A stretch of 64,000 nt of DNA from Dehalococcoidia bacterium (lineage in GTDB: Bacteria; Chloroflexota; Dehalococcoidia; Lucifugimonadales; UBA3495), in the NCBI GenBank assembly GCA_965203195.1, contig OZ241860.1:1986334-2050333 (forward strand). The letters are read 5' to 3'. Shown here piece by piece: positions 7,666-37,749 of this stretch. Position numbers and translations under genes: made by a program. Below the pieces are notes generated by a model, which worked only from the letters and a program-made list of their open reading frames with translations, made no database searches and was not told the DNA's origin. Position 1 is the stretch's first letter, and each line of letters begins with the position of its first letter.

Positions 7666-9063
7666 TTATACCATACGCGACTGCACCGGCTGCCCTGTAT
7701 TGGGGTCAAGCATCGTCGGGATGCGGGGCATCCGATTGTCAAAGTACTCGGCGATTGACCAGAGCTGCACACGAGGATAGCTCTGGGCGCCTACGGTTAT
7801 CTGCCCTTTGCCGGCGGTTTCGCGCCAGGCATTGCTGCGCGGCCCGAATTGATCCAAAGTGACAAATATGCCCATCGCCGCGTTGTCCCGTTCCATAGCG
7901 GTCATAAATGCGCGCACTTGGTCGATGGTAGGGCGCCCGCCTTTGACCTGGGCCAGCACCAGAGGGGAAGCGTAGTCGCTGGGCTTGACCTGCATTCGGC
8001 CGCGTCCGTCGATGCCGCCGTCGCCGACCTTGGTTTCATTGGGGGCCAGCCCCGGTATTCGGGTTACGGCCCAAGCCTCAAAGTCCTGCGGATTGGCCTG
8101 CGCCAGACGCCGCGCGCCAGCCATATCTTGTGGTATGCCATCTACGCTGGCCTGTATTCCCAGCGGGGCCAGCCGATTTTGGGTAATGTCAACAGCGTGC
8201 GGCGATAGATCAATGCCGATCCACTGCCGATTGAGGGCGGCGGCGGCAACGATGGTAGTACCCCCGCCGCAGAAAGGATCCAACACCAAATCGCCCTCGT
8301 TGGACGAAGCGCTGATGATGCGTTTGAGCAGAGCGGCCGGCTTTTGCGTGGGGTAGCCGATGCGCTCCGGAGACCAAGTTTGCAGGGAATTGATGTCCGT
8401 CCACCAGTCCGGCATCCTGGCCCCGCGTTCCAAATCGCGCGGCTGGTTGTCAATGGAGACCCCGCCGCGGCTTTCAACCAATGCGGTTGAGGCGTCGGAA
8501 TACGGAACATACAGCCGATTAAATGTAACTGCCGCGGATTTGGTGTAGCGCAGGATGACATCGTGCTTGCGGGCAAAGTCATTGGCGGGAACGCCGCCGC
8601 CGCGATAGCACCAGATGATTTCGTTGCGAAAGCGGCTGGCCCCAAACACGCAGTCCAGCAGCATTTTGATGTAGTGACTGGCGGTGGGGTCGCAGTGCAA
8701 ATAGATAGTGGCCGTCTTTTTCATCAGCCGCCGCATTTCGGGCAAGCGATCCGCAAGGTAGCTCAGATAGGCCAGCATACCGGAATCGCCCAAAAACGCG
8801 CGCAGCCCGGTAATCACCCGATGCGCCGGGTGCGCGATGGCGTTGGCGATGCGCCGGGTGCGTTCTATTGCCGCCGCGTCCCATTTCCAGGTGTCCTGGA
8901 AAGCGCGGACCTGCGCCGGAACGCCGTTGCCTTCGCCAAAGAGGATGTTGTAGTTGGCGTTGCTGTTGAACGGCGGGTCAAGGTAGATGAGGTCAACGCT
9001 GCTGTCCGGCCACTGCCGCATCCAGTCCAGGCAGTCGCCGTAATACAGGGTTTGGGGGTTCAT
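7666..9063 (-). CDS. beta-class N4/N6 DNA methyltransferase fused to a C-terminal Mrr-like restriction-endonuclease domain
   Basis: Motif IV LIYLDPPFNSNANY precedes motif I VLDPFCGGGTTIVAA. The C-terminus GDGGIDGRGRMQV...LVLAQVKGGRPT...GIFVT resembles the Mrr-type PD-(D/E)XK core. ATG 9063 has GGAGAA upstream. The track start at 9192 reads through a repeat element. Confidence 0.8.
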   Translation of the reverse strand: MNPQTLYYGDCLDWMRQWPDSSVDLIYLDPPFNSNANYNILFGEGNGVPAQVRAFQDTWKWDAAAIERTRRIANAIAHPAHRVITGLRAFLGDSGMLAYLSYLADRLPEMRRLMKKTATIYLHCDPTASHYIKMLLDCVFGASRFRNEIIWCYRGGGVPANDFARKHDVILRYTKSAAVTFNRLYVPYSDASTALVESRGGVSIDNQPRDLERGARMPDWWTDINSLQTWSPERIGYPTQKPAALLKRIISASSNEGDLVLDPFCGGGTTIVAAAALNRQWIGIDLSPHAVDITQNRLAPLGIQASVDGIPQDMAGARRLAQANPQDFEAWAVTRIPGLAPNETKVGDGGIDGRGRMQVKPSDYASPLVLAQVKGGRPTIDQVRAFMTAMERDNAAMGIFVTLDQFGPRSNAWRETAGKGQITVGAQSYPRVQLWSIAEYFDNRMPRIPTMLDPNTGQPVQSRMV

Positions 9064-9080
9064 GGTATTCTCCTGATTCT

Positions 9081-9216
9081 GGTAGCGTTTTGTTGTAGGT
9101 AGTTTGATGTTCCCCGTCATTCCCGCGCAAGCCGGAATCCAGTAGCCTTGCCTGGACTCCGGCTTATGCCGGAGAGGTGGCCGTCCGGCCAAACCACCTG
9201 AAAAGAAACGCTACCG
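9081..9216. repeat. MITE/REP-like hairpin element, copy A
   Basis: Terminal inverted repeats GGTAGCGTTT (9081-9090) and AAACGCTACC (9207-9216). The inner arm is ccaaaccacctg and the palindromic core is gtcattcc...ccggaat. Related copies lie near 15541, 19835 and 35321. Confidence 0.6.
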
Positions 9217-9376
9217 TGATGATTTCGGCTTGATGACCGGGGACGACATCAAGGCCAAGCTCCGTAATGGCTTGCGGTTGCAGGGACAACCAGGTAGCAC
9301 CGGTGTCCACCAGAAACGTGATCTGACGGGACATCAATGGACCATTGATAATACCTTGCGCAAAAGTTACGCCCAT
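9164..9376 (-). pseudogene. truncated retropepsin-like aspartic protease gene
   Basis: 70-aa ORF with FLVDTGATWLSL (DTG motif), only about 60% of the length of the 5620 paralogue. Its 3' end runs into MITE copy A. Confidence 0.45.
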
Positions 9377-9609
9377 ATTTTCCCTCTAATTCTGTTCCAA
9401 TCGCTTGTAACGGCAGTAGTAGCGGAGCTTGCTCCGACCGGGGCTGGCAGGGCAATGAGGTCGCCGTGAGCGCGGCAGGGGCAATGCGGTTGCGGGACAG
9501 GAAAATTGCCGGGGCTGTGCCGGGTGCGACGCCTTGCTGGCGGGGGTTCTGACCGGCTGGCGATGCTGCCCCGGTCAGCATAAGTGACGCCCATAGTATT
9601 GGCCCTTTG

Positions 9610-10035
9610 CTATCCCGTCAATTGCTTGGCGTCGCCAATCGCCAACGCGAAGCGGCTGATGTCGGCAGGGCGATTGCCGGGATAGGTGGGGCGCTTGGGC
9701 GGCCTGGTGTCCAGCCCCATTCCCGAGACCGCCGCCACGGGCAAGGTCAGCCACTTTGAGTCGGGCTGAACCAGGCAGTCAAATTCCGGCGCGGCCGGCC
9801 AGCCGTTGATTGCGCCCGGCGCAACAGCGACGTCCAGCCGGAACGGGGCCAGGCTTACCAGGTGGCTGGCCAGGAACAGAACCTCTATGCCTTCCACTAT
9901 GCCGGTGCGCGGATGAAACCGGGCGACTACCGAATCGCCAATTTCATCCGAATCCTGCTCCCGGTAAGGCGGGCGTATCTCAATGGTGAGAATATCGCCA
10001 ATTCGGTCGTACTGAAATGTCAGGTTCGCCCCCAT
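9610..10035 (-). CDS. DUF2283-like protein (putative antitoxin) with C-terminal extension
   Basis: N-terminus LTFQYDRIGDILTIEIRPPY...ARFHPRTGIVEGIEVL matches the DUF2283 pattern as I recall it. It overlaps the upstream toxin-like gene by 16 nt. Confidence 0.55.
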   Translation of the reverse strand: MGANLTFQYDRIGDILTIEIRPPYREQDSDEIGDSVVARFHPRTGIVEGIEVLFLASHLVSLAPFRLDVAVAPGAINGWPAAPEFDCLVQPDSKWLTLPVAAVSGMGLDTRPPKRPTYPGNRPADISRFALAIGDAKQLTG

Positions 10036-10334
10036 TCCGTTTCTCCTCTCGCTGGCCGGCGCGCGATGCGCGCGGTGATAATCCAGTATCGTGGTCCGTC
10101 ATCAATGACGACCGCGACAACTACGTACTTGCTCAAATCATCGTGCCAGCGCGTGAACAGACGAACTTTCGCGTCGCTTGGACTGATCTGTACGCGGTCA
10201 GGGGCTGTCAGAGTGAGCGCAATGCACCGGCGATGGGCAGGAAGCAAATCGGGATGCCGGTTTCTGATATGCCCTTCCCTCTCGTCGGTAAGTTCGACCG
10301 CGCCGCCCAGGTAGGGGCATTGGAAAAGTTCCAT
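10020..10334 (-). CDS. putative toxin (Barnase/EndoU/RelE-like, H-x3-RHP motif)
   Basis: 104 aa with LTDEREGHIRNRHPDLL followed by APDRV and YVVVAVVID. This layout recalls small nuclease toxins paired with DUF2283. TATAAT lies 23 nt upstream. Confidence 0.4.
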   Translation of the reverse strand: MELFQCPYLGGAVELTDEREGHIRNRHPDLLPAHRRCIALTLTAPDRVQISPSDAKVRLFTRWHDDLSKYVVVAVVIDDGPRYWIITARIARRPARGETEWGRT

Positions 10335-10363
10335 TGCTCCCTCCGCAACCCGTCCTAATTATA

Positions 10364-11608: not shown

Positions 11609-11964
11609 AGGGTTATTCCTCTGGTGGGGCCGGCGCCGGCCGGGTTCGGGGATGGGCGGGCCGTCAGTATAATATAAATAGTCGGAACGATGGCGGTTCG
11701 GGCGCTGTCAGGAGCTTGCCGCCGGCCGCCGCCGTCGCAATGCCATATTCCGCAGCAGCGCCCATTGCCGGCGTTGCCAGCGCGGCGTTGCCGACACGCC
11801 CCGGGGGGCTTTGCCATCTACCGGGCCGGCAGCCTCAAAGCTGCCCGTCCCCGCAGTTAACGCCTGACGCCGGCGACGCGACTGAACCGGCTGCGGCAAT
11901 GCGGGCCGTAGCCTCAATCGCCTCCCGGTTTAATCGCCTTCCGGTCAGGCCGTATGCGCTGCGG

Positions 11965-12393: not shown

Positions 12394-12528
12394 ATCAACT
12401 CAACCTGCATCCGTTCCAGCCGGCGGCCAAACTGGTCCATCACAGGCAACCGCTTCCTGGACAGACACATTGAAAGCCCGGGTCATTTCGGCAACCTGCT
12501 CCATAAGCCGAGCAACGCGTTCCGCAAG

Positions 12529-12705: not shown

Positions 12706-12829
12706 CGGCGCGCTCCAAGCGTGATGGGATGTGTCCGGTTCAATCGGCGTCCGGTTCAGTTGGCGTCCGTCCGGTTCAATTATAGCAGATCGGATTGCCG
12801 CCGAACTGGACGGGGCGGGGGGATGTTCG

Positions 12830-14580: not shown

Positions 14581-15483
14581 ATGGCTCGGTTGGAAAACGC
14601 GCCGGCGCAAGGAACGCCCGGGCGAGATATGCGGGCTTGGGAAGTGGCGCGCCTGATCAGCGAATATGTCGCGCCGGCCACAACCATCCTGTTCGGCTCC
14701 CGGGCCAAAGGCGCCTGGCACGAACTCTCGGACATCGACATCGCCATCATCCATGACGGCACGGCAGACGAAGCGGCGCTGGAAACGGCCTGCCTGGCGC
14801 TGGGCAAAAGCATTGTGCGGCGGCTCTATGACCAGCCCGTTGCCCTGGAACTGGTTATTGAAAGCGAGGCGGTCTTTGACTACTACCGCAAGGCGCGCAA
14901 CAGCCTACAGCGCAGCATTGCCGTTGAAGGGACGGTTATGGGAAACGGAACCACCGGCTATGAACCGGACGCCGCGATTGAACCGGACGAATGGCCTGAA
15001 ACCGCGCTGCGGCTGAGGGACGCGCAGGAATATCTGCAAGCGCTGGAGGACGCTGTAACCCTGAACCGGGGGGAACGCATCATCGGGGTGAACGCCCACC
15101 AGGCGCTGGAACACGCCCTGAAAGCGGTGGCGTCCGCCGCGCAGCTGGAGTACCGGGAACATCGCACGCACGACCTGGAAACGCTGACGCGCATCGTTGC
15201 CGAACTGATAGATGACGACTTGCTGGACTTCGATTTGGAAATGCCGGCATATATCCGCTGGTTCGCCCAATTCGCGGGCACGCGCCGCTACCGGGCCACC
15301 AGCAGGGGCGTGGCGGATCGGCAGCGACTGATGGCAAGCGTACGCAATGCGGTGCACCGGCTGACCGAACTGGCCCTAACCGCCAGCGGAAAAACGCGGG
15401 CCGACATAGATGCCGCCACAATGCCGCCGATTCCACCCAACGAGCGCGTGGAATGGGCAGAGGACGACCGGGAGCGCTACTGA
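14581..15483 (+). CDS. single-chain nucleotidyltransferase (MNT)-HEPN fusion protein
   Basis: NTase motif ILFGSRAKG...LSDIDIAII in the N-terminal half. HEPN-like AHQALEHALKAV...YREHRTHDL (R-x4-H) in the C-terminal half. ATG 14629 is an alternative start. Confidence 0.7.
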   Translation: MARLENAPAQGTPGRDMRAWEVARLISEYVAPATTILFGSRAKGAWHELSDIDIAIIHDGTADEAALETACLALGKSIVRRLYDQPVALELVIESEAVFDYYRKARNSLQRSIAVEGTVMGNGTTGYEPDAAIEPDEWPETALRLRDAQEYLQALEDAVTLNRGERIIGVNAHQALEHALKAVASAAQLEYREHRTHDLETLTRIVAELIDDDLLDFDLEMPAYIRWFAQFAGTRRYRATSRGVADRQRLMASVRNAVHRLTELALTASGKTRADIDAATMPPIPPNERVEWAEDDRERY

Positions 15484-25121: not shown

Positions 25122-25140
25122 GCGATCGGAGGCAACCGGG

Positions 25141-26430: not shown

Positions 26431-26659
26431 TATGCCCGTTGCCGTACTGCCCGTTGCCGGGACGAAATACGGCGGCATTCCGTATTTGGGCCAGGGGCGG
26501 GGCGATGCCGGCACAGGTCGCATTGCGCCGCTATAATGACGGGAAGGCAACGAGGGCAGAAACGCGACAGGACGCCCGCCCGTCCGCCAACGCCAATGCC
26601 GAAGCCAGCCGCCGCCGAGCCGCCGCCCGCCGGCGGGTTCCGACAGGGGGACAGCCAAA

Positions 26660-27763
26660 ATGCCGCGCGCCACCATACTGGTAATGATTGACGGGCTGGA
26701 CCCGGAATACCTGGCTGCCTGCCCGGCGCCCAACCTGCGGCGGTTCGCCGAGCAGGGCTTCCGGGCCCACGGCGGCGGGATGATGCCCAGCGTCACCAAT
26801 GTGAACAACGCCTCAATGGTCACCGGCCACTACCCGGCCCAGCACGGCATCGTCTCCAACTACTGGCGCGACCGGCAGGCGGGAATTGAGCAGTATGTGG
26901 AATCGGGCGAGTTCATCTGCTCCGACACCATCTTTGCCCAGTGCCGGCGGCGGGGCGGAAGGTCGCTGCTGGCGGCGTCCAAAGACAAGCTGCGGCGTCT
27001 GCTGGGCGACGATGCCCACTTGGCTTTTTCCGCGGAACAGCCCACGTCGGCGGCCGTTGCCGACGCCGGCGACCCGCCGCATATCTACTCGCTGGAAGTC
27101 AACGGCTGGACGATCGACGCCGCCCGCGCCGCCCTGCAACGGGAGCATTACGACCTGGCGTTTATCGCCACCACCGATTACGCCATGCATACCTACGGGC
27201 CGCAGCATCCCGAATCGGCGCGCCACCTCGCCATCCTGGACGCCGCCCTGGGGCGGCTGGTGGACGACCTGCCCGATGTGCAGATTCTGATTACCGCCGA
27301 CCACGGTATGTCGGACAAGCGCCGTATGCTGCATCTGCCGGCCATCCTGGCGGAGCATGGCATCGGCGCCCAGGCGGTTCCCGTCATCAAAGACCGCTAT
27401 GTGGCGCATCATTACAACCTGGGCGGCTGCATTTATGTGCATCTGGACGACCCGGCGGCGGTTGACGACGCCCTGGGCGCGCTGCGGGCCGCCGACGGCG
27501 TTGAGGAGGCGATGCCGCGCGGGGAGGCCGCCGCCCGTATGTCGCTGATGGGCGCGCGGCTGGGCGACATTCTGGTCACCGGCGCGGCGGATGTGGTGTT
27601 CGGCGACCCGACGGAAGTCACCCTGCCCCCCGGCCTGCGTTCCCACGGCTCCCGTCACGAGACGCAGGTGCCCATCATCGGCTACGGCGGCGATTTCGGG
27701 GGCTTTGCGTTCCGCGAAAACCGCGACCTGGGACGCTATGTCAGCCAGCGGGTGTTCGCCTAG
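26660..27763 (+). CDS. alkaline-phosphatase-superfamily enzyme (nucleotide pyrophosphatase / phosphonoacetate hydrolase-like)
   Basis: ILVMIDGLDPEYL (metal-ligand Asp) and MPSVTNVNNASMVTGHYPAQHGI (nucleophile Thr motif), later ITADHGM. Confidence 0.75.
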   Translation: MPRATILVMIDGLDPEYLAACPAPNLRRFAEQGFRAHGGGMMPSVTNVNNASMVTGHYPAQHGIVSNYWRDRQAGIEQYVESGEFICSDTIFAQCRRRGGRSLLAASKDKLRRLLGDDAHLAFSAEQPTSAAVADAGDPPHIYSLEVNGWTIDAARAALQREHYDLAFIATTDYAMHTYGPQHPESARHLAILDAALGRLVDDLPDVQILITADHGMSDKRRMLHLPAILAEHGIGAQAVPVIKDRYVAHHYNLGGCIYVHLDDPAAVDDALGALRAADGVEEAMPRGEAAARMSLMGARLGDILVTGAADVVFGDPTEVTLPPGLRSHGSRHETQVPIIGYGGDFGGFAFRENRDLGRYVSQRVFA

Positions 27764-27841
27764 GGCGCACTGTCCCTTCACTATACTGCCGGGCCACGCT
27801 ACTGGCTCTTGCTTCCCCCAACCTCTGCGGTGAAAATCATT

Positions 27842-28756
27842 ATGGCTACCCTGTCGGTGCGCGCTCCGGCCACTACTGCCAACCTCGGCCCCGGCTACGA
27901 TTGCCTGGGGATGGCCCTTGACCTGTGGAACCGCCTCACCGTAAGCACGGAGACGGCGGCGCCGGCGGTGCGCGTGCGCGGCGAAGGCGCCGGCGAACTG
28001 GCGGCGGATACGGAAAACCTGACCTACCGGGCGATGCGGTTTCTGTATGACGAAGCCGGCGTGCCGATGCCCCCGCTGGCACTGGAATGCGACAACGCCA
28101 TACCCCTCAGCCGGGGCCTGGGCAGCAGCGCGGCGGCCATCGCCGGCGGGCTGGTCGCCGCCAACGCCCTGCTGGACCATCCCTTTACGCCCGGCGAAAT
28201 GCTGGAAATGGCGGCCACTATTGAGGGGCATCCCGACAATGTGGCGGCGGCGCTGCACGGCGGCCTGCAACTGGTGGTGACGGACGAGGGCAGCCGCATC
28301 TACACCGCGCCCATCGGCGTCCCCGATGATTTGCAGGCGGCGCTGTTCATCCCGGAGCGGCGCATCGCTACGGCGGACGCCCGCCGGGTTCTGCCGGCGC
28401 AGGTGGGGATGGCCGACGCCGTGCATAATATGAGCCGCGCCGCCCTGCTGGTGGCGGGGATGATGGGCAACCGCCCGGAGTATTTGGGGATTGCCACGCA
28501 GGATCGGCTGCATCAGCCCTACCGCCAGGCGCTGTTCCCGGCGATGAAGGTTATTTTCGCCGCCGCGCGCAACGCCGGGGCGCTGGGCGTGTTTCTGTCC
28601 GGGAGCGGCAGCGTCATCCTGGCGTTGACGCGGGAACGGACGATGACGGTGGCCTACGAGATGTTTGACGCCGCGCGGACGGCCGGCGTGGAGGGCCGGG
28701 TGACCATCACCCAACCGGCGGCGCAGGGGGCGCACCTGATGCCGGCGGCGGAATAA
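27842..28756 (+). CDS. thrB: homoserine kinase
   Basis: MATLSVRAPATTANLGPGYDCLGMALD and PLSRGLGSSAAAIAGG (GHMP kinase motif). TATACT lies about 55 nt upstream. Confidence 0.9.
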   Translation: MATLSVRAPATTANLGPGYDCLGMALDLWNRLTVSTETAAPAVRVRGEGAGELAADTENLTYRAMRFLYDEAGVPMPPLALECDNAIPLSRGLGSSAAAIAGGLVAANALLDHPFTPGEMLEMAATIEGHPDNVAAALHGGLQLVVTDEGSRIYTAPIGVPDDLQAALFIPERRIATADARRVLPAQVGMADAVHNMSRAALLVAGMMGNRPEYLGIATQDRLHQPYRQALFPAMKVIFAAARNAGALGVFLSGSGSVILALTRERTMTVAYEMFDAARTAGVEGRVTITQPAAQGAHLMPAAE

Positions 28757-28776
28757 AACCTGGCCGGGTCTGCTGA

Positions 28777-30345
28777 TTACGCGGTGGCCGGCGGCGCTTT
28801 CGGCCGGGCCAGTTCGGCCAGATAGTCCGTGGCCCACTGGCGGGCGATGCGGAGTTCAATGCGCCGGTCAATCGCCCGGTCGCCGTACCAGCGACCGTTG
28901 CGCCGGTTATCCTGGCGCAGGGCGGTCAGCGTCATCGTGTTGGATTTGCGCTTGTTGCAGGGGCCGCACAGCGGGGCGCGGTTCTCCAGCTCGTTGCTGC
29001 CGCCTTCGGAATCGGGCAGAATGTGGTCCAGCTCCAGAAACTCGGCGGTGGGCGGCTCAAAGCCGCAGCCCCAGCAGCGGACGCCCCACTGCTCAACCAG
29101 GATGTCCAGCATTTCCTGGCGGCGCATTGTAGCCGGCCGGCGGCGGCGGTACACCGGCCCCAGATGCGGGGCGCTTTCGCCATCATCGGTGCGCGCGGGC
29201 GGGATGTAGCGGATTTCACAGGCGGCTTGCAGCTGGGGCATCAGGCTCTGCTGCTGCGCCTTGAAATCGTCAACATTGATGCCCAGACCGAGCAGACGGT
29301 TGGCGACGTGATAGGCGGCATCCTCGCGGCGGTCGATGCCCACCCAGCGGCGGCCCAGATTCTGGGCGGCAATCGGCGTGGTGGCACACCCGCAAAATGG
29401 GTCCAGCACAATATCACCAGGGTTTGAGCCCGCCGCGACAATGCGTTCATACAGGGCCAGCGGCTTTTGGTCGGGCGAGCCGGTGCGCTCGCGACGCGGG
29501 GCGTGCATCATATCGGCAATGTCCGTCCAGGTATCGCCAAGCATTACATTTTCGATGACATCATTGCCACGAGTCTCCAAGTCGTATCTGATTCTGATGT
29601 TACCGCTTGCCGTGCGGTGAATCCTACTTTCCGATTCCAGACGCGCAACGCTGGAATCGGTATAGTTCCCGCGTGGGGCCGTTTTAAAAGCCTGGCCGTT
29701 ATTGTCGATGCGGATGTGCGACGGGAGGGATGACTTCGGATGGCGGATTTCCCCGCTTACCCGGTTGTACCGGGCTTCGGGCGACTTGCCGTAAACGTAG
29801 ATAATTTCGTGGTTACGCGGGAACTGGCGGGATGTAGCCTTTCCTCCGCGGCCGCTTTTCCCATAAACCCAAATTACCTCGTTCCTGAAATTCCGCTTGC
29901 CAAAGATGGCGTCCAATACCATGCGGATATAGGCATTGGCGCTGTGGTCGCAGTGCAGGTAGATGCTGCCCGTCGGTTTCAGCACCCGGTGCATTTCCAG
30001 CAGGCGGACGCCCAGGAAGCAGAGGAACGCCGCCGTGTCGTCGTCCTGCGTCATCCGGGTGGATTCGATGACCTGGAACAGGGCCCGGTTTTCGTCCTGG
30101 ATTTGGTCCAGCCAGATGCGGTGGACGGGTTGCCAGAGCCACTGGTCAGGGCGGTTCAGCATAGTCGGGTCGTCGGCCCAGCGCCAGGCGTCCTCGTACT
30201 GGCTGGCCGAGGCGGCGCGGTTGCGCTTTTTGTTGAAAGGCGGGTCGGTGGCGATTAGGTCCACGGTTTCGCTGTTCATCCCGCGCAGGACATCCAGGTT
30301 GTCCATATTGTAGAGGACGCGGTCGGGGAAGTTCTGCTGGGCCAT
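28777..30345 (-). CDS. beta-class N4/N6 DNA methyltransferase fused to a C-terminal HNH endonuclease domain (copy 1)
   Basis: Motif IV LIATDPPFNKKRN, motif I VLDPFCGCATTPIAA, C-terminal CWGCGF...LELDHILPDSEGGSNELENRAPLCGPCNKRK (HNH). ATG 30345 has AGGAG upstream. Confidence 0.85.
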   Translation of the reverse strand: MAQQNFPDRVLYNMDNLDVLRGMNSETVDLIATDPPFNKKRNRAASASQYEDAWRWADDPTMLNRPDQWLWQPVHRIWLDQIQDENRALFQVIESTRMTQDDDTAAFLCFLGVRLLEMHRVLKPTGSIYLHCDHSANAYIRMVLDAIFGKRNFRNEVIWVYGKSGRGGKATSRQFPRNHEIIYVYGKSPEARYNRVSGEIRHPKSSLPSHIRIDNNGQAFKTAPRGNYTDSSVARLESESRIHRTASGNIRIRYDLETRGNDVIENVMLGDTWTDIADMMHAPRRERTGSPDQKPLALYERIVAAGSNPGDIVLDPFCGCATTPIAAQNLGRRWVGIDRREDAAYHVANRLLGLGINVDDFKAQQQSLMPQLQAACEIRYIPPARTDDGESAPHLGPVYRRRRPATMRRQEMLDILVEQWGVRCWGCGFEPPTAEFLELDHILPDSEGGSNELENRAPLCGPCNKRKSNTMTLTALRQDNRRNGRWYGDRAIDRRIELRIARQWATDYLAELARPKAPPATA

Positions 30346-30416
30346 TGTGGGGTACTCCTGTCCTGCGACCATACTGTTGCCGGTATAATGAGGATTTCCG
30401 CAGCACTGTCCGGTTA

Positions 30417-30446
30417 GATATATTGTATTTACAGCGTCCGTGTCAA
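30417..30446 (-). promoter_or_regulatory. near-consensus sigma70-type promoter for MTase-HNH copy 1
   Basis: Minus strand reads TTGACA (30446-30441), N18, TATATC (30422-30417). It is an AT-rich island in GC-rich DNA, about 70 nt upstream of ATG 30345. Confidence 0.45.
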
Positions 30447-30455
30447 GTTGGGGCA

Positions 30456-30537
30456 GTTCCCGGCGATGAAGGTTATTTTTGCCGCCGCGCGCAACGCCGG
30501 GGCGCAGGGGGCGCACCTGATGCCGGCGGCGGAATAA
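30456..30537 (+). pseudogene. remnant copy of the thrB 3' end (internal 141-bp deletion)
   Basis: 30456-30505 matches thrB 28534-28583. 30506-30537 matches thrB 28725-28756, including the TAA stop. The junction falls in a shared ggcgc microhomology. Confidence 0.85.
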
Positions 30538-30589
30538 AGCGGGGCCGGGCCGCGCCGGGCCGCTTGCCCGCATTGAATCGCCTTGCCGT

Positions 30590-32053
30590 CTATTCCCGCA
30601 ATTCCGCCGGCACCGGAAAGTCTTTGATAAATGACTTGGCGTATGACATCCAGCCGCCCTGGTAGGGTCGTCCGGTCTGCCGGATGTAAAAGTCCATATC
30701 ATCCGAATTCAGCGCCGACAGCAGACGCTTCCGGTCGACGCCGGGCTTGGGCTTGACGCAGTAGCCGGAATAAAAGGTCGCATCCGCGTTGGGGCAAACC
30801 TGAAAGTTGGGGCGCCGGTTCATGCCGGAGGTCAAAATCTTGTCGCCAAACCCGGAGACGATGGAAACCTGCCGGCCGAAAGCGTACCAGCGCGCCGGGT
30901 CAAATCGCCCCTTGTCCCGGTTGAGCAGCCGTTCCCGGTGGGAAATCAGCCACCGGTAGGCCACGGGAGCATTGGCGGCAATATCGCCTTCGGGCAGCAG
31001 CCGGCCGTGGTCATCATACGGGAAAATGGCGACGCGGCGCACCGGATCCTGCCCGTCGCGCATCACCGACGCTTTGACCACGGGGCGCAGGAGCCGGGGT
31101 TCCAGCCCGATGGCGCGGGCCTCGCCCGCCGGCAGGATGAATACCCGGTCGGCCAGTGTCTGTATGCCTACATGGATGTCCGCAACCGCCGCCAGGCGCG
31201 GCCCCCGGCGGGCCAGTTCCTGCATCCGCCGCCGTTCCGCCGCCGTGGCCGCCAACCAGGTATGCGCGGGATTGCCGGCGTCCAACGCGATTGCCCCGGC
31301 GTCATAGAAACGCGCGCCGTCATACTTTGATACCGGGATGTCTGCCGGCGCGCCGTCTTTTCGTATGATGGTGACGGCGGTGTAGGTGGTAACATCGTCA
31401 AAGACTTGGTGTTCGCCGAAGTCAATAATTCGTTCCACCCGGTGGGATTGCGCCAGCAACTGGCGCAGTGCCGCCCCGGAGGCCGACCGCAGCCAGCTGG
31501 AGGGGGCAATGTAGCCCAGCAAACCGCCGCTGCCGAGCAGGGCCAATCCCAGCTCGTAAAACACCAGGAACAAATCAGTGGCGCCGCGCGTAACGCGCCA
31601 GCGGCCGGCGATGCGATGGCGGCCTGACTGCTCCAGATGCTGCACCCGCACATAAGGCGGGTTGCCGACGATATGCGTAAATCGGCCCCAATCGGCGGCG
31701 AAAGCGTCCCGGTCAAAAGCATTTCGTACTTGCAGGTTCCATTGGACCCGCGCGCCGGGATGCCATTGAGCCAGAGTGTCATCCAGGCGGGAGCGGCAGC
31801 GGGCGATGGCGGCGGCGTCTATGTCGTAGCCGGCCATACGGCCCAGAGCGGCCAGGGCATCGGCGCGGCCCAGGCGCGTCAGCAGCCGGCGGGCCACGGC
31901 GACCAGAAAGGCTCCTTCGCCGCAGGCCGGGTCGCAGATGGATGCCGCGCCCAGCCCGTCGGCGCCGGCCGGCAGCGCATTGTCTAGTACCAGAGCCACG
32001 ATGGACGCCGGGGTATAGACTACGCCTTGCCGCTTGCGGGTGGAAATACTCAT
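30590..32053 (-). CDS. gamma-class N6-adenine DNA methyltransferase (Eco57I/TaqI-like), M subunit of type II R-M pair 1
   Basis: VVYTPASIV, motif I ICDPACGEGAFLVA, motif IV IVGNPPYVRV. The ATG overlaps the upstream R gene stop (ATGA). Confidence 0.85.
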   Translation of the reverse strand: MSISTRKRQGVVYTPASIVALVLDNALPAGADGLGAASICDPACGEGAFLVAVARRLLTRLGRADALAALGRMAGYDIDAAAIARCRSRLDDTLAQWHPGARVQWNLQVRNAFDRDAFAADWGRFTHIVGNPPYVRVQHLEQSGRHRIAGRWRVTRGATDLFLVFYELGLALLGSGGLLGYIAPSSWLRSASGAALRQLLAQSHRVERIIDFGEHQVFDDVTTYTAVTIIRKDGAPADIPVSKYDGARFYDAGAIALDAGNPAHTWLAATAAERRRMQELARRGPRLAAVADIHVGIQTLADRVFILPAGEARAIGLEPRLLRPVVKASVMRDGQDPVRRVAIFPYDDHGRLLPEGDIAANAPVAYRWLISHRERLLNRDKGRFDPARWYAFGRQVSIVSGFGDKILTSGMNRRPNFQVCPNADATFYSGYCVKPKPGVDRKRLLSALNSDDMDFYIRQTGRPYQGGWMSYAKSFIKDFPVPAELRE

Positions 32054-32739
32054 GGCGACAGGCGTCTCAATTCAATGCGTCGGGCCATACGCGGGAAAAA
32101 CAGCGGGACGCGCAGCGCATTGTCCAGCGCGGCGCAGCCTTCGGCGCTGATGCCCATTGCGGCGGGGTTGGCAATGCCGATTATGGCGTTGGCGTCGGTA
32201 TCCAGCTCAGCAATGCCGATTGCCATTTCCTGCGGGGCGTGAATATGCTCGTGGTCGGCGCGGAGCCGGGCGTAGCGCTGGATGTCATTATCTCTGATGG
32301 CTTCCCGGCGCACAATCTGCCCGGCCCGGTTTTTGTAGGGTATAGGGTTGGTTACACAGAAAAGGTTGCCGTACACAATGTTGCGGCGACGCAGGTTGGC
32401 GGTTTCGCCAATCTGCTGCTCCAGGTAGTTGACGGAGTTTTGCCAGTAATTGGAGATGACAAACTTGACGCTGATTACCCCCAGTTCCTCGCCATCCCGC
32501 GCGACAAGCACATCAACATTTTTGTCGTAATACATACCGACAACGCCGGCTTCCTGCGCGCTGACCGGAGATTGCCCGGTGAAAGTGTACCCGTCTCCCA
32601 GCTCGCGACGCAACTCATCCTGCACCCAACCGTGCAGGACTTTGGTCTTTTCATTGGAACGAACGCCGTGCCGGAGTACCATCCGGTAGGATTCCTGCAT
32701 CGCCGCCAGGAAGCGTTGCTCTACACTGTCGGTTGGCAT
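32050..32739 (-). CDS. putative type II restriction endonuclease (R subunit of pair 1)
   Basis: 229 aa with a PD-(D/E)XK-like KNVDVLVARDGEELGVISVKFVISNY. 4-nt overlap with the methylase gene. GC visibly lower than in the neighbouring genes. Confidence 0.6.
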   Translation of the reverse strand: MPTDSVEQRFLAAMQESYRMVLRHGVRSNEKTKVLHGWVQDELRRELGDGYTFTGQSPVSAQEAGVVGMYYDKNVDVLVARDGEELGVISVKFVISNYWQNSVNYLEQQIGETANLRRRNIVYGNLFCVTNPIPYKNRAGQIVRREAIRDNDIQRYARLRADHEHIHAPQEMAIGIAELDTDANAIIGIANPAAMGISAEGCAALDNALRVPLFFPRMARRIELRRLSP

Positions 32740-33045
32740 CTGTTCACCTCAATTTCAATAGCAAGTTACGCCAATGGGCATCTTGGTCAAAGCGTTGCCC
32801 AACCCGGCCATTGTTGGAACGATGGTACCGCAGAGCGTGGGTTGGGCGCAAGCGCTGCTGTACCGGGTTAGGATTATTCAAAACTCAGAAAGGATCGAAA
32901 CGCGCTACGAATTCCGTCACTTTCGTGAGCAATTTCCGCAATCGCCCGCGCATCGTTCCCACGCCAGATCACCAGCCATGTCCCCAATCGACTCTGGGGG
33001 ATTATAGCACCGCAGGCCCTCCAGAACGAACCCCACGAACGCGCG

Positions 33046-33078
33046 CCAAAGAAAACCGGCCGCTCGGCAAGCGGCCGG
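33046..33078 (-). terminator. intrinsic-terminator-like hairpin (orphan)
   Basis: Minus strand shows a 9-bp perfect stem ccggccgct/agcggccgg with a 5-nt loop, followed by ttttctttgg. It lies just outside the IS end and has no intact upstream gene. Confidence 0.45.
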
Positions 33079-33168
33079 CCCGGAACGCTATCGGCAGACA
33101 TCCAACAAACAGGACGCCAGCCTGCTTGGCCGACTATCCCACGCTACGCTCCGTCGCCTTTTTCGCCA

Positions 33169-33978
33169 GGCCGTGTTGACATTTCAGCGTAGCCAGATGA
33201 GGGCCGCCGCAAAATGCCAAAACCCCAAGTAGCGCCGGCTCAATTTCTCAAACCGGGTGAACACCCGCCGGTAGCGCTTCACTTTGCCAATAAAGCACTC
33301 CACCAAATGACGCTCGCCGTACAGGTCCGGATCATACACCACCACTACCTTCCGGTTGGAACGCCCCGGTATCACCGCCGTCATCCCCAACTCCGCAATC
33401 CACTCCCGCAGCCACTGGGCATCGTATCCCTTGTCCGCAATCACATACTCGCCGGCGTAGCCGGACAGCAACGCTTCGGCCTGGGTAATATCGTTCTCCT
33501 GGCCTCCCGTCAGGATGAACCGCAAAGGATTGCCCAGCCCGTCCACTGTGATGTGTACTTTGGTACTGAACCCGCCCCGACTGCGCCCTAACGCTTGAGC
33601 GTCTTGACCGCCCCCTTTTTCGGGGCGCCGGCGGCGTCGGGATGAGCGCGGACGATGGTACTGTCAATGATGAGGTATTCGGTGTCCGGGTCATCGGCCA
33701 AGTGTTGGTGGAGCGCCGTCCAGATGCCACGGTCGCACCAGTTGGCGTAGCGTCGGTAGATGGAGTTCCATTTGCCGTATTCCGCAGGCAGCATTCGCCA
33801 GGGGGCGCCGGAGCGGGCAATCCAAAGTACGGCGGTAACGAAGCGTCGGCAATCGGTTTCACAGCCGACGTAGAGGTCGGAGCGGCTGCGGAGGAAGGCG
33901 AGGATTTTGTCCCATTGGTAGGATGTCAGTTCCAAGTTTGCCATGCCGCAATGATAACACCAAAATGTCAACACGACC
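33169..33978 (-). mobile_element. IS5-family (IS427/IS1031-like) insertion sequence, copy 1
   Basis: About 17-bp terminal inverted repeats: GGCCGTGTTGACATTT at the left end and AAAATGTCAACACGACC at the right end. The element is about 810 bp and has a two-frame transposase. Confidence 0.85.
33184..33944 (-). CDS. IS5-family DDE transposase, orfA-orfB joined by a -1 frameshift
   Basis: orfA is MANLELTSYQWDKIL...GAPKKG. The slippery AAAAAG lies at 33620-33615. The -1 frame continues GGGQDAQALGRSRGGFSTKVHITVDGLGNPL...ADKGYD...ERHLVECFIGKVKRYRRVFTRFEK. Confidence 0.85.
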
Positions 33979-33980
33979 TA

Positions 33981-34790
33981 GGCCGTGTTGACATTTCAGC
34001 GTAGCCAGATGAGGGCCGCCGCAAAATGCCAAAACCCCAAGTAGCGCCGGCTCAATTTCTCAAACCGGGTGAACACCCGCCGGTAGCGCTTCACCTTGCC
34101 AATAAAGCACTCCACCAAATGACGCTCGCCGTACAGGTCCGGGTCATACACCACCACTACCTTCCGGTTGGAACGGCCCGGTATCACCGCCGTCATCCCC
34201 AACTCCGCAATCCACTCCCGCAGCCACTGGGCATCGTACCCTTTGTCCGCAATCACATACTCGCCGACGTAGCCGGACAGCAGCGCTTCGGCCTGGGTAA
34301 TGTCGTTCTCCTGGCCTCCCGTCAGGATGAACCGCAAAGGATTGCCCAGCCCGTCCACTGTGATGTGCACTTTGGTACTGAACCCGCCCCGACTGCGCCC
34401 TAACGCTTGAGCGTCTTGACCGCCCCCTTTTTAGGGGCGCCGGCGGCGTCAGGATGGGCGCGGACGATGGTGCTGTCAATGATGAGGTATTCGGTGTCCG
34501 GGTCATCGGCCAAGTGTTGGTGGAGCGCCGTCCAGATGCCGCGGTCGCGCCAGTTGGCGTAGCGTCGGTAGATGGAGTTCCATTTGCCGTATTCCGCAGG
34601 CAGCATTCGCCAGGGGGCGCCGGAGCGGGCAATCCAAAGTACGGCGGTAACGAAACGGCGGCAATCGGTTTCACAGCCGACGTAGAGGTCGGAGCGGCTG
34701 CGGAGGAAAGTGAGGATTTTGTCCCATTGGTAGGATGTCAGTTCCAAGTTTGCCATGCCGCAATGATAACACCAAAATGTCAACACGGCC
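33981..34790 (-). mobile_element. IS5-family insertion sequence, copy 2 (head-to-tail with copy 1, separated by TA)
   Basis: Same inverted repeats (perfect GGCCGTGTTGACATTT / AAAATGTCAACACGGCC). It is flanked by TA on both sides. It is near-identical to copy 1, with scattered substitutions. Confidence 0.85.
33996..34756 (-). CDS. IS5-family DDE transposase, orfA-orfB joined by a -1 frameshift
   Basis: Same architecture as copy 1, with the slippery AAAAAG at 34432-34427. Confidence 0.85.
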
Positions 34791-34850
34791 TAGGGTAGGG
34801 CAAAGTCCGGCGGCAGTACGGACGAACCGCAAAGGAGGGCAACCGGCCTT

Positions 34851-35309
34851 ATGAATCTGATGAACCGGGTGATCACCGGCGGCTACTGGGTGGCGTACTA
34901 CCTGGTCTATGCGCTCGGTGTGGTATATTTGACGTGCCATTTCCGGCGCGAGTTGCCGTTTCTGGTCGCCGGGCCTGGGCAGCTGGATTTGCACCAGCTG
35001 TTTATACTGGCCGCCATCTTCGCGGTGGCGGGGGGAACGGCGCTGTTCGTGGCAATCAATGTGGAGGTGACCGGACGCATGGTTTTGCTGATACCCAAAG
35101 CGTGGAACAGGGCGAAAGCCGAGGGCCGGGCGGAGGGCCTGACTACGGGTCGGGCGGAGGGCTTGACCGAGGGCCTGACTGTGGGGCAGGCCGAGGAACG
35201 GGACCGGGTGCAGGCCATTCTGTCCCGGTACGCGCGGCGCGACCCGGCAACCGGGGAACTTGTCCTGGACCGGGACGCCGAGGAACGCCTGCGCAACGGC
35301 AAGGGCTAG
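34851..35309 (+). CDS. small membrane protein with EG-repeat (paralogue of 1137-1574)
   Basis: Hydrophobic N-terminal half, then KAEGRAEGLTTGRAEGLTEGLTVGQAEE. Confidence 0.55.
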   Translation: MNLMNRVITGGYWVAYYLVYALGVVYLTCHFRRELPFLVAGPGQLDLHQLFILAAIFAVAGGTALFVAINVEVTGRMVLLIPKAWNRAKAEGRAEGLTTGRAEGLTEGLTVGQAEERDRVQAILSRYARRDPATGELVLDRDAEERLRNGKG

Positions 35310-35320
35310 GCTGCGCGCCA

Positions 35321-35432
35321 GCCGCGTTTCTTTATCGGGTGGTTTGGCGGCGGGCCGGCAGCCCATCCCGCCGGCGAAAGCCGGCCGGCCGGAATGACCG
35401 GAAAACCAAACCACCTGACCGGAAACGCTACC
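35321..35432. repeat. MITE/REP-like hairpin element, copy D
   Basis: The left arm is gccgcgtttc...ggtggtttgg and the right arm is ccaaaccacctgaccggaaacgctacc. The core is cccatcccgccggcgaaagccggccggccggaatgaccgg. Confidence 0.55.
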
Positions 35433-35555
35433 GCCTAACCGGGAACGACACCGGGGCGATAGCCGCAGCAGCGCTGGCCGCCGCCGGTGTAGCATCCCGC
35501 CGGCCGGTGTAGTATCCTGCCGGCTATGGACGCGCTGCCCGGCATTCCGCCTTCC

Positions 35556-35645
35556 ATTCCGGTTGAGCCGGTTCCGGTTGAACCGATTCGGACTGAACCG
35601 ATTCCGGTTGAGCCGGTTCTGATTGAGCCGGTTCTGATTGAGCCG
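35556..35645 (+). repeat. 15-bp tandem repeat (ccgRttcYgRttgaR, about 6 units) abutting the acetyltransferase ATG
   Basis: Read directly from the sequence. If translated from ATG 35526 it would encode (PVEPx)n. Confidence 0.7.
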
Positions 35646-36206
35646 ATGACGCCCGCCGACTGGCCGGCCGTGCGGCGCATTTACGCGGAGGGCATCGCCA
35701 CCGGGCAGGCTACCTTTGAGACGGAAGCGCCGGGCTGGGATGCCTGGAACCGCAGCCACCTGCCCCTATGCCGCCTGGTGGCCCGCGCCGCCGGCAGTGG
35801 CAACGGCGCTGATAGCGGCAGAGATGGCGATGGCAGTAGCGGCGGCAATGGCGGGAATAACGCCGGCGGCGTTCTGGCCTGGGCGGCCCTGTCGCCCGTG
35901 TCGGGCCGCGCCTGTTACTCGGGTGTGGCCGAACACAGCATCTATGTTGACGCCGCCGCCCGGGGACGGGGCATCGGCAAACTGCTGCTGGGCGAACTGG
36001 CGCGGCAGTCGGAAGCCGCCGGCATCTGGACATTGCAGAGCAGCATATTCCCGGAAAACGCCGCCAGCATTGCTATCCACCTGGCGTGCGGCTTCCGCAT
36101 CCTGGGCCGCCACAAGCGGGTAGCGATGCACAACGGCGTCTGGCGCGACACCGTAATTATGGAACGCCGCAGCAATGTAGTCGGAGTCGAAGGTATGCAA
36201 CACTAG
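35646..36206 (+). CDS. GNAT N-acetyltransferase, phosphinothricin-acetyltransferase-like, with Gly/Asn/Ser insert
   Basis: MTPADWPAVRRIYAEGIATGQATFETE...EHSIYVDAAARGRGIGKLLL...NAASIAIHLACGF. Confidence 0.75.
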   Translation: MTPADWPAVRRIYAEGIATGQATFETEAPGWDAWNRSHLPLCRLVARAAGSGNGADSGRDGDGSSGGNGGNNAGGVLAWAALSPVSGRACYSGVAEHSIYVDAAARGRGIGKLLLGELARQSEAAGIWTLQSSIFPENAASIAIHLACGFRILGRHKRVAMHNGVWRDTVIMERRSNVVGVEGMQH

Positions 36207-36340
36207 CATTGATTACAGGTACGATACTTGCTCTCGATGTCAACGGCTAGTTTGTCGTCGGCTTCTGCCAGCCGATACAACAAAGCAGAGATAGCGTACA
36301 TCTGGCTATCATAATCAAAATCGAAACCGGTATATTCCAT
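36203..36340 (-). CDS. 45-aa hypothetical ORF downstream of MTase-HNH copy 2
   Basis: Product is MEYTGFDFDYDSQMYAISALLYRLAEADDKLAVDIESKYRTCNQC. The ATG lies 18 nt after the methylase stop, with GGGGTGA upstream. The segment is markedly AT-richer than its surroundings. Confidence 0.3.
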   Translation of the reverse strand: MEYTGFDFDYDSQMYAISALLYRLAEADDKLAVDIESKYRTCNQC

Positions 36341-36357
36341 GATTGTCACCCCGCTTT

Positions 36358-37749
36358 TCAGGCCGCAATCCCCATTTCCCGCAGGCGGGCCAGCAGGTAT
36401 TCCTGCGATCGGACGCCCTTGACGCGGTTGCAGTGGCCGCAGAGGAGTTGCAGGTTTTCAATGTGGTCGGCGCCGCCGGCGGACTGGGGGATGATGTGGT
36501 CAACCTCCATATGCCGGAACTCAAAGGCGGAGCGGCAGCCCCGGCAGCGGCCCTCCTGCTGCCCAAAGAGGATGTGCCGGTTCTGGCGGTAGGGGCGGGG
36601 CGCGTCAATGTCAGTGCGGCGGGGTATGTCGGCGCGGGCGGTTACCAGGCGGTTGTGAAAGAGGTTGCCCATTGACTGCCGCAAGCGCATATTGACCAGC
36701 TCCACGGCCTTGGGCGAGATGTCAATGCCAATCCAGCGGCGGCCCAGCTGCTCGGCGGCCACGCAGGCGGTGGCGCAGCCGCAGAACGGGTCCAGCACTA
36801 CATCGCCGGGGTTGGACGAGGCTTTGATGATGCGTTCCAGCAGGGCCAGCGGCTTTTGCGTGGGATAGCCGATGCGCTCTTTGGCTTGGGATGCAATGGG
36901 CGATATGTCCGTCCAAATATCCTGCAACGGCACGCCGGGCATTTCATCAAGATAACGCTTATATTGAGGCACACCTCCCGGCCTTCTCTGGACTATCCGG
37001 CCCTCGTCAATCAGTTCCTGCATTCGCGCTTCGCTGTAACGCCAGTACCGGGTCACTCCCATCATTTCGTAATGCGGGTTGCCTTTGGAGGCACCGCCGG
37101 GGGCGGTCAGATCGCTCAGCCTGTAACGGCGGTTGGTTCCCGGCTCTGTGTACCTGTAGAACTTGGCTACATACTCCGGGTTATAGGCCGTATAGACCGG
37201 GTTCCAGTTCCATTGGTCCGACTTGGTGTAAAAAAGCAGGATGTCGTGAATGCGGCCATGCTGCCGTCGGCCTTGTCGGGTATCGCTATGGGCGTTAGTG
37301 CGCCGCCAGGTAATTTCGCTGCGGAAATTGCCGGCGCCGTAGATGCTGTCCAGCAGCAGTTTGAGGTAATGGCCGGCGGTGGGGTCGCAGTGCAGGTAGA
37401 TGGAGCCGGTGTCTTTCAGCACGCGGCGCATTTCCAGCAGTCGGACGGCCATCATACAGAGGTAGGATTGCATTCCCTTGCCGTGGGTGAGGCCGGCGGC
37501 GGCCAGGGCCTGGTAGAGGGCGGGCTGTTGGTCGGCGACTAGGCCCATCCAGGCGGTGTCCAGGTCGGACAGGGTCCAGGTGTCCTTGAAGGCGGCGCCG
37601 GCGGCGGCGCTGCCCACGGGGGCGGCGTAGTTGCGGTTGGAGTTGAAGGGCGGGTCGAGGTAGATGAGGTCAACCGAGGCGGAGTTGAGGCCGCGCAGGA
37701 TGTCCAGGTTGTCGCCCGTCCAGATGGTTTTGTCGGCGAAGTTGGTCAT
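36358..37749 (-). CDS. beta-class N4/N6 DNA methyltransferase fused to a C-terminal HNH endonuclease domain (copy 2)
   Basis: Motif IV LIYLDPPFNSNRNY, motif I VLDPFCGCATACVAA, C-terminal CRGCRSAFEFRHMEVDHIIPQSAGGADHIENLQLLCGHCNRVKG. Confidence 0.85.
   Translation of the reverse strand: MTNFADKTIWTGDNLDILRGLNSASVDLIYLDPPFNSNRNYAAPVGSAAAGAAFKDTWTLSDLDTAWMGLVADQQPALYQALAAAGLTHGKGMQSYLCMMAVRLLEMRRVLKDTGSIYLHCDPTAGHYLKLLLDSIYGAGNFRSEITWRRTNAHSDTRQGRRQHGRIHDILLFYTKSDQWNWNPVYTAYNPEYVAKFYRYTEPGTNRRYRLSDLTAPGGASKGNPHYEMMGVTRYWRYSEARMQELIDEGRIVQRRPGGVPQYKRYLDEMPGVPLQDIWTDISPIASQAKERIGYPTQKPLALLERIIKASSNPGDVVLDPFCGCATACVAAEQLGRRWIGIDISPKAVELVNMRLRQSMGNLFHNRLVTARADIPRRTDIDAPRPYRQNRHILFGQQEGRCRGCRSAFEFRHMEVDHIIPQSAGGADHIENLQLLCGHCNRVKGVRSQEYLLARLREMGIAA

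Follow-up and report, generated by a model that had tools for sequence, protein, structure and literature searches.

Restriction-modification (R-M) enzymes that combine nuclease and methylase in one chain are classically of Type IIC/IIG, most of which carry an N-terminal PD-D/EXK nuclease and a gamma-class methylase (Pingoud et al. 2014, PMC4081073). Their specificity can be changed via a single recognition module (PMC4081073 and, in excerpt, PMC2731913 and PMC2582602). An exception to this layout is BtgZI, with an N-terminal alpha-class methylase and a C-terminal PD-(Q)XK nuclease that has Q in place of E (PMC4081073). Here we describe three genes, F1, F2 and F3, in a 64,000-nucleotide stretch of the genome of a Dehalococcoidia bacterium (contig OZ241860.1 of assembly GCA_965203195.1, positions 1,986,334 to 2,050,333; hereafter the window). 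Each encodes a beta-class methylase with a C-terminal nuclease, which is of the Mrr type in F1 and of the HNH type in F2 and F3. With a probability of roughly 0.55, we propose that all three are self-contained, single-polypeptide R-M enzymes on a methylase scaffold resembling the Mod subunit of Type III systems.

Judged by its domains, this architecture lies outside the classical gamma-class layout, yet it is common in public data, where it goes by generic names. A first-pass annotation of the window had stated that classical single-chain R-M enzymes use gamma-class methylases, in agreement with Pingoud et al., and that beta-class methylases with a C-terminal HNH or Mrr module are poorly characterized. 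For the HNH fusions, the latter statement is borne out by full-text literature searches, which returned no paper on them. The family is abundant in databases with no characterized member found, and REBASE may hold a characterized homologue. A paper on Haloferax HVO_A0006 concerns a fragment of a gamma-class Type IIG enzyme and is irrelevant here.

Three methylase-nuclease fusions among six methylase genes

The window is chromosomal, with a GC content of about 65%, and contains housekeeping genes throughout (glmS, pyk, ileS, fpg, nadE, purA and an opp transporter). Six open reading frames (ORFs), each with a DNA methyltransferase domain according to Pfam, were confirmed where the first-pass annotation had placed methylase genes:

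7666-9063, minus strand: F1, N6_N4_Mtase (4.8e-43) and Mrr_cat (2.7e-5; 24.7 bits, cut-off 21)
28777-30345, minus strand: F2, N6_N4_Mtase (7e-38) and HNH (2.8e-9)
36358-37749, minus strand: F3, N6_N4_Mtase (8e-43) and HNH (6.6e-14)
62544-63542, minus strand: fourth beta-class methylase, no fused nuclease, N6_N4_Mtase (PF01555, 1.7e-35)
30590-32053, minus strand: gamma-class methylase, Eco57I (1.6e-23) and N6_Mtase (9e-12), with TaqI_C (4e-3) below threshold (17.8 bits, cut-off 26.5)
2667-5528, minus strand: gamma-class methylase-like protein of 953 residues, weak N6_Mtase (3.6e-7; 30.3 bits, cut-off 20.4), weak Eco57I and MmeI_Mtase

These genes are placed singly, with housekeeping genes such as glmS, pyk, ileS, purA and nadE between them, and a single defense island was rejected because of this separation. 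A prophage or plasmid origin was rejected as well: megablast of 26000-40000 against plasmids and phages gave no match, and there are no tRNA genes.

The assignment to beta or gamma class follows from the order of the motifs. In the beta-class genes, DPPF lies near residues 29-34 and FCG(G/C)(G/A) near residues 264-322, giving the order motif IV, target recognition domain (TRD), motif I; in the gamma-class genes, DPACG(E/T)G precedes NPPY. In F1-F3 the order DPPF...FCG(G/C) is followed by the nuclease, and the Pfam matches agree with the earlier call of one Mrr-like and two HNH domains. The four beta-class enzymes all score far above the PF01555 gathering cut-off of 26.7 bits (F1 148, F2 131, F3 147 and the product of 62544-63542 123 bits) and form one subfamily with 33-39% pairwise identity. 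Between F2 and F3 the alignment extends through the HNH domain; the product of 62544-63542 shares 33% identity with F3 and matches the PADLOC model MTase_II (PDLC03354) at 2.5e-121. For the fusions, neither PADLOC nor NCBIfam has a dedicated model, and only generic MTase_II/MTase_III and IscB/Cas9-type HNH matches were returned. The DPPF motif suggests that N6-adenine is the probable methylation target of F1-F3.

Exchange of the target recognition domain

F2 is a 522-residue protein. The following features of this gene and its upstream neighborhood bear on the comparison with a near-identical strain, L006:

29491-29897, minus strand: target recognition cassette of F2, residues ~150-285; the syntenic gene of L006 has an unrelated cassette
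28912-29076, minus strand: HNH domain of F2, residues 424-478 (HNH 2.8e-9, HNH_5 7e-9), with C424xxC427, D440-H441, N455 and C460xxC463-N464
30403-32810, minus strand: separate mobile cassette with the gamma-class methylase 30590-32053 and a 229-residue ORF at 32050-32739 (putative R), replaced in L006

The genes for a GHMP kinase, a phosphodiesterase and TreT are 98.6% identical between the window and L006, and F2 and its orthologue share only 75% identity overall. This difference is concentrated in the middle of the protein: residues 1-120 are 100% identical and residues 300-522, which comprise motif I, the linker and the HNH domain, are 97-100% identical, whereas the central TRD (residues 140-285) is only 13-30% identical. 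At the DNA level, a segment of ~410 nucleotides (29491-29897) has no similarity to L006, and the gene flanks on either side of it are ~94.5% identical. The exchange thus affects the recognition module and leaves the rest of the enzyme, methylase core and nuclease, as it was.

This exchange makes most sense if the TRD also directs the fused nuclease, which itself would then lack specificity, and we infer from it that the F2 nuclease uses the shared TRD. In a two-gene R-M system, the genome would be open to attack by the old nuclease once the methylase alone had changed its specificity, which is why the swap is easiest to accommodate with a single TRD. A milder form of the same pattern is seen for F3, which is 77-90% identical to its orthologue in a close relative (L001) within the TRD and 100% identical elsewhere, with flanking genes that are 99.8-100% identical.

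Next to F2, the place of the gamma-class cassette is taken in L006 by a gene for an Asp-protease-like protein (L006 5528-5949), with conserved sequence on both sides; from this alignment, the site (30403-32810) is a hot spot of cassette exchange. The idea that F2, the upstream gamma-class methylase and the 229-residue ORF form one Type IIS-like system with two methylases was rejected, since L006 has F2 without the pair.

The predicted nucleases retain their catalytic residues

F3 is a 463-residue protein with the following parts:

36691-37674, minus strand: methylase domain with central TRD, residues 26-353 (PF01555, 8e-43; AlphaFold2 predicted local distance difference test (pLDDT) mostly >85)
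36547-36669, minus strand: conserved linker, residues 361-401, with invariant P376-x-R378-T-D380 and, at 0.083, the lowest ratio of nonsynonymous to synonymous substitution rates (dN/dS) in the protein
36394-36546, minus strand: HNH domain, residues 402-452 (HNH 6.6e-14), with C402xxC405, D417-H418, N432, C437xxC440-N441 and K444
36784-36786 in F3 and 29386-29388 in F2, minus strand: site of a Gly-to-Ala change in motif I (FCGCAT)

Conservation in the HNH domains of F2 and F3 was read from an alignment of 40 sequences whose members are 37-95% identical to F3. Invariant in F3 are C402, C405, D417, H418, N432, C437, C440, N441 and K444 of the HNH domain as well as P376-x-R378-T-D380 of the linker, and the corresponding HNH columns of F2 are invariant too. 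The signature of the HNH (PF01844) beta-beta-alpha-metal fold, consisting of the D-H base, a structural Asn, a metal-binding Asn and two CxxC pairs, is complete in both proteins. We calculated dN/dS by the Nei-Gojobori method for the window's F3 gene and 79 genomic homologues, which gave 0.18 for the HNH domain, 0.08 for the linker, 0.10-0.12 for the methylase core and 0.32 for the TRD (TRD dN 0.75). By these values the HNH domain is under purifying selection.

The AlphaFold2 model of F3 has an overall pLDDT of 76.8 and a predicted template modeling score of 0.70, and its methylase part is confident. The best fold match found by Foldseek is EcoP15I Mod (4zcf, E 8e-20), followed by Helicobacter pylori Mod (6k0w), CcrM, M.BceJIV, M.MboIIA and M.RsrI; phmmer against PDB sequences also returns 6k0w and 4zcf. 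Because EcoP15I Mod is the best match, we describe the scaffold as Type III Mod-like.

The 465-residue F1, likewise encoded by a solitary gene, combines the same kind of methylase with a different nuclease, an Mrr/MspJI-type PD-(D/Q)xK domain:

8179-8997, minus strand: methylase domain, residues 23-295 (PF01555), with DPPF at residues 29-32, a short TRD and FCGGG at residues 264-268
7738-8124, minus strand: nuclease domain, residues ~314-442 (Mrr_cat, PF04471), with E329, D348, D352 and Q372-V-K374

In an alignment of F1 with 116 full-length relatives, DPPF is kept in 117/117 rows, and so are D348 and Q372 of the nuclease; D352 is kept in 116/117, and E329 and K374 in 110/117 each. These residues make up the D...QxK signature of Mrr and MspJI. 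The isolated C-terminal domain was modeled with a pLDDT of 91.3, and its best fold match in the PDB is the MspJI endonuclease (4f0p; E 2e-3, probability 1.0, TM score 0.54-0.56). Weaker matches (E > 0.01) are EcoO109I, EcoT38I, Ecl18kI and Can2, with restriction endonuclease-like chains of Rpb5 interspersed. The nuclease fold in the model fully explains the residues outside the methylase domain, and Pfam finds no modification-reader domain, such as a winged helix or an SRA-like domain, in F1. The loss of catalytic residues that the first-pass annotation had named as evidence against these nucleases is therefore not seen; the residues are intact and conserved across the families.

Distribution, gene context and phage relatives

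Family sizes were counted as clusters at 90% identity and are lower bounds. The F1 family comprises at least 120 full-length clusters that are 46-91% identical to F1, some of which have the same nuclease and much longer TRD inserts. For F2 there are at least 120 clusters (45-96% identity), nearly all with PF01555 and HNH, and for F3 at least 120 (74-97% identity), all of ~463 residues and all with both domains. A query with the linker and HNH domain of F3 against a representative library returned 903 clusters at E <= 1e-10, many of which are short fragments for which a stand-alone HNH protein and a truncated fusion are indistinguishable. The rarity implied by the first-pass annotation thus gives way to architectures that are common and are annotated as DNA methyltransferases.

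The fusions occur mostly in metagenome-assembled genomes (MAGs) of Dehalococcoidia and other Chloroflexota, often several to a genome; at least 4, of both kinds, lie on a single 3.95-Mb contig. Among GTDB species genomes, 239 relatives of F3 were identified, the best 80 of which are all from Dehalococcoidia/Chloroflexota MAGs, and several MAGs have 2-3 copies of the F3 type. The proteins are named only "DNA methyltransferase" or "site-specific DNA-methyltransferase", with Chloroflexota, Holophagales and Poribacteria as named sources. Relatives of F3 are present in bins RHO3, IRC4, SB0662 and CO36387, which, to judge by their names, may be from sponge symbionts. Enrichment of R-M genes in sponge symbionts is documented (PMC5649159) and would make it less surprising to find six methylase genes within 64 kb in this lineage.

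The F1 architecture is also found on plasmids of cultured bacteria, labeled as methyltransferase only:

L169 3989-5713: Mesorhizobium japonicum MAFF 303099 pMLa (WP_044552088.1)
L170 4001-5632: Microbacterium amylolyticum plasmid (WP_165137960.1)

The Microbacterium gene adjoins zeta-toxin and Fic/VbhA modules, and the Mesorhizobium gene has hypothetical neighbors only; its product has S in place of the catalytic Q, giving S-V-K. Metagenome scaffold L171 (5312-8128) has a tandem pair of F1-type genes with 96% identity to each other immediately after an opp transporter operon, a context that differs from that of F1 in the window. The pair could reflect a recent duplication or an error of assembly.

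In keeping with the earlier statement that the fusions lack a separate R gene, no conserved partner (R, helicase or antitoxin) was found at the loci of F1 relatives (5), F2 relatives (4) and F3 relatives (65 scorable). Among the 65 F3 loci, the proteins encoded nearby form clusters of which the largest spans 7 loci, and no helicase or Res gene adjoins F1, F2 or F3 or is conserved over these 65 loci. A 235-residue ORF downstream of the homologue in L002 has no family match and does not recur at other loci. Relatives of F2 and F3 are found in varied genomic contexts; those of F1 stand alone among housekeeping genes, for example hisI/ribD...uvrA and hemL...recQ. Around F1 itself the GC content is lower, at 0.605 for 8001-10000 versus ~0.66 in the flanks.

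In the window, F3 is a solitary gene between an array of PaREP1 genes and a convergent GNAT gene. Four tandem paralogues of PaREP1 (HEPN-like) lie directly upstream of it at 37806-39239 on the minus strand, and a fifth lies 4 kb off at 43479-43835 on the plus strand; the close relative L001 has three copies at the equivalent place by F3.

The methylase subfamily of the fusions is also carried by phages, with 43-56% identity over residues 1-360. Among the best 80 relatives in IMG/VR, 77 are methylase-only proteins that end at about residue 360 and have no HNH domain. In GenBank, the Streptomyces phage matches listed span residues 2-361 or 9-361 only, and 2 of 35 matching phage records span at least 80% of F3. 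That phages would retain the protective half alone fits what is expected if the full-length proteins are R-M enzymes.

Proposed mechanism and alternative explanations

In the mechanism that we propose, the N-terminal ~300-360 residues would form a beta-class methylase with DPPF, probably acting on N6-adenine, into which the TRD is inserted mid-domain as in Type III Mod. A short conserved linker would tether a small nuclease without a DNA-recognition module of its own, which in F1 would be an Mrr/MspJI-type PD-(D/Q)xK core and in F2 and F3 an HNH domain with bound zinc. The single TRD would target methylation and cutting alike, so that methylation of host sites blocks cutting, whereas incoming DNA that lacks the methylation suffers a nick or a cut in the site or close to it. 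Since each chain has one nuclease active site, cutting would probably require two protomers or two sites. Recombinational swapping of a TRD cassette would reprogram methylation and restriction together; with one TRD for both activities, such a swap would avoid the lethal mismatch of a two-gene system, and joint reprogramming would explain why the fusion genes vary almost only in the TRD. The methylase and nuclease activities, the modified base, the dependence of cutting on the TRD and the defense phenotype of the fusions are all qualities that we infer from sequence and predicted structure.

Several observations weigh against this interpretation. The dN/dS values come from a simple Nei-Gojobori estimate, the pairs compared are not independent and the genome is rich in GC. 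In motif I, which is FCGCAT in F2 and F3 as well as in each of the 40 relatives aligned, Ala stands in place of the second Gly of FxGxG; this is unusual, though invariant, and because of the invariance the Ala-bearing motif is presumably functional. The HNH part of the F3 model is of low confidence (pLDDT 50-70), and the domain arrangement in the model is tentative. The top-hit lists favor full-length fused relatives, which makes the contrast between cells and phages a qualitative one. Finally, F2 and F3 hold their locus between close strains and the F3 family has spread very widely in a single class, and conservation of locus and lineage has also been reported for orphan methylases with roles outside defense (PMC4752239).

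This last point leads to an alternative that we consider unlikely, namely that the fusions are conserved, lineage-specific, orphan-like methylases whose fused nuclease has a housekeeping or other non-defense role. It could act in Dam/MutH-like, strand-discriminating nicking or in recombination and repair, or serve as a CcrM-like module for DNA binding or dimerization. The presence of the F3 family in 239 species-level genomes of essentially one class, the locus kept between close strains and the tight placement between housekeeping genes in several genomes (hisI-ribD...uvrA; hemL...recQ) would all be in line with such a role, as would the typically stronger conservation of orphan methylases compared with R-M methylases (PMC4752239). 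One of the closest solved structures is that of CcrM, whose C-terminal domain binds DNA non-specifically. However, the contexts vary widely among the 65 scorable loci, and the several paralogues that a genome contains all differ in their TRD. A wholesale TRD swap in near-identical strains is hard to square with a fixed regulatory or repair motif, and a pure binding module would not need invariant nuclease catalytic residues.

The remaining possibilities concern mobility and modification dependence. The first-pass annotation had offered single-polypeptide R-M enzymes, methylation-dependent nucleases and mobile selfish genes; we favor the first, whereas the absence of a reader domain speaks against the second, and the kept locus with variation in the TRD only speaks against HNH homing. 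That the fusions are selfish or addiction modules, in which the nuclease acts as a toxin once methylation lapses (post-segregational killing), or products of HNH homing appears rather improbable to us. The solitary genes in many different contexts, the lower-GC stretch around F1, the zeta-toxin and Fic/VbhA neighbors of the Microbacterium gene and the tandem pair in L171 could all be accommodated by it, and mobile elements often carry HNH domains of the IscB/Cas9/group II intron type. Addiction is, however, shared by many true R-M systems and is compatible with single-chain R-M. As to homing, the genes are not set in an intron or intein, and the conserved loci do not show a pattern of empty versus filled sites; the genes hold their locus between near-identical strains with variation confined to the TRD rather than the gene boundaries, and the same layout is seen in the Mrr-type fusion, which has no HNH domain. 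Least probable by far, in our view, are modification-dependent (Type IV-like) nucleases that are joined to a methylase and cut foreign methylated DNA independently of it. The F1 nuclease does best match Mrr_cat in Pfam and MspJI by structure, both of which are Type IV catalytic domains, and many HNH Type IV enzymes exist (PMC12707154). Yet only the catalytic core is present, with no SRA, EVE, winged-helix or other reader in the ~40-residue linker or elsewhere, and the Mrr-type core also occurs in modification-independent enzymes such as LlaGI, according to an excerpt of PMC2790908. Moreover, a methyl-dependent nuclease joined to an active adenine methylase would risk self-attack.

Other genes in the window

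Both genes that the first-pass annotation had called R genes can be labeled as such by position only. The 229-residue ORF in the gamma-class cassette and the other one,

61836-62531: ORF of 231 residues with no family match, downstream of the beta-class methylase 62544-63542,

gave no significant match in Pfam (E <= 1), NCBIfam, PADLOC, phmmer against the PDB, tblastn against plasmids or hhalign against the F1 nuclease profile.

The product of 2667-5528 had been described as a solitary gamma-class methylase. The methylase match stands, if weakly; the large extra termini suggest that the label may understate the protein. No Pfam match was found for the ~300 N-terminal residues (1-300) or the 334 C-terminal residues (620-953), even at E <= 1, and the N-terminus bears a PD...E-V-E string. 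Instead of a simple lone methylase, the gene may thus encode a diverged protein that is Type IIG-like, BREX-like or MADS-like.

Two tandem insertion elements of the IS5/IS427-like type (33168-34794) separate F3 from the gamma-class R-M cassette. They are ~812 bp long and 98% identical over an aligned 300 nucleotides, each copy has ORFs with DUF4096 and DDE_Tnp_1, and the second copy is flanked by a 20-nucleotide inverted repeat, CCTAGGCCGTGTTGACATTT. Conflict-type genes are also present amid the housekeeping genes (14581-15483, 23138-24052 and 54034-55935) and encode a nucleotidyltransferase-HEPN fusion, three Uma2-family nucleases (two of them adjacent) and a protein with an NYN domain.

Implications

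If the fusions are active single-chain R-M enzymes, the principle of combined restriction and modification would extend to a beta-class, Type III Mod-like scaffold with two plug-in nucleases, in which a single recognition module guides both protection and attack and the protein is half as large as an MmeI-type enzyme. Many genes now called "DNA methyltransferase", and possibly counted as orphans in surveys, would then be complete restriction systems; such genes occur in Chloroflexota, Holophagales, Poribacteria, rhizobial plasmids and elsewhere. Estimates of defense content would shift, especially for symbiont-rich lineages known to be R-M-enriched (PMC5649159), and the fusions could supply small, re-targetable restriction or nicking enzymes. 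If the nuclease is instead inactive or non-defensive, what we describe is a common and unremarkable domain architecture. The feature most deserving of follow-up is the swap of the TRD cassette between near-identical strains, a natural experiment on the segment that sets specificity, which could guide specificity engineering.

Comparison with known systems

The fusions share parts with several described groups of enzymes. Orphan beta-class methylases of phages and plasmids, such as the Streptomyces phage "DNA methylase" gp48, and CcrM and M.BceJIV belong to the same methylase subfamily and have no fused nuclease. With Mrr/MspJI Type IV enzymes, the C-terminal domain of F1 has the catalytic fold and the D...QxK motif in common; the N-terminal domain with which those enzymes sense modification is absent, and an active-looking methylase is fused in its stead.

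The Mod subunits of Type III systems (EcoP15I, H. pylori, Mbo45V) are the best structural and good sequence matches, and they have the beta-class methylase and the central TRD of the fusions. In contrast to these systems, the fusions have no adjacent res gene, which encodes a superfamily 2 helicase with a PD-(D/E)XK nuclease, and carry a small fused nuclease instead, so that ATP-driven communication between sites is not expected. The diversity of modA and modH alleles is confined to the central TRD, and the variation among the fusions seems to resemble it.

BtgZI, compared here by description only, shares with all fusions the order of methylase first and nuclease last, and its Q variant is also seen in F1 (D...Q-x-K). 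It differs in having an alpha-class methylase and has no HNH counterpart. Type IIC/IIG enzymes (the MmeI, Eco57I, BpuSI and TaqII family) resemble the fusions in that nuclease and methylase reside in one chain with a single recognition module, and they can be solitary like the fusions, as is the case for MmeI (PMC4081073). Their order, however, is an N-terminal PD-(D/E)XK nuclease, a gamma-class NPPY methylase and a C-terminal TRD, whereas the fusions have a beta-class DPPF methylase, a central TRD and a C-terminal HNH or Mrr-type nuclease. At 463-522 residues versus roughly 900-1100, the fusions are about half as long. We tentatively suggest, at slightly under even odds, that F1-F3 represent an uncharacterized class of compact (~460-520 residues) single-chain R-M enzymes, in which a Mod-like beta-class methylase bears a plug-in HNH or Mrr nuclease and a swappable TRD retargets both activities. 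They would amount to a second, independent "MmeI-like" solution, greatly expanded in Dehalococcoidia.

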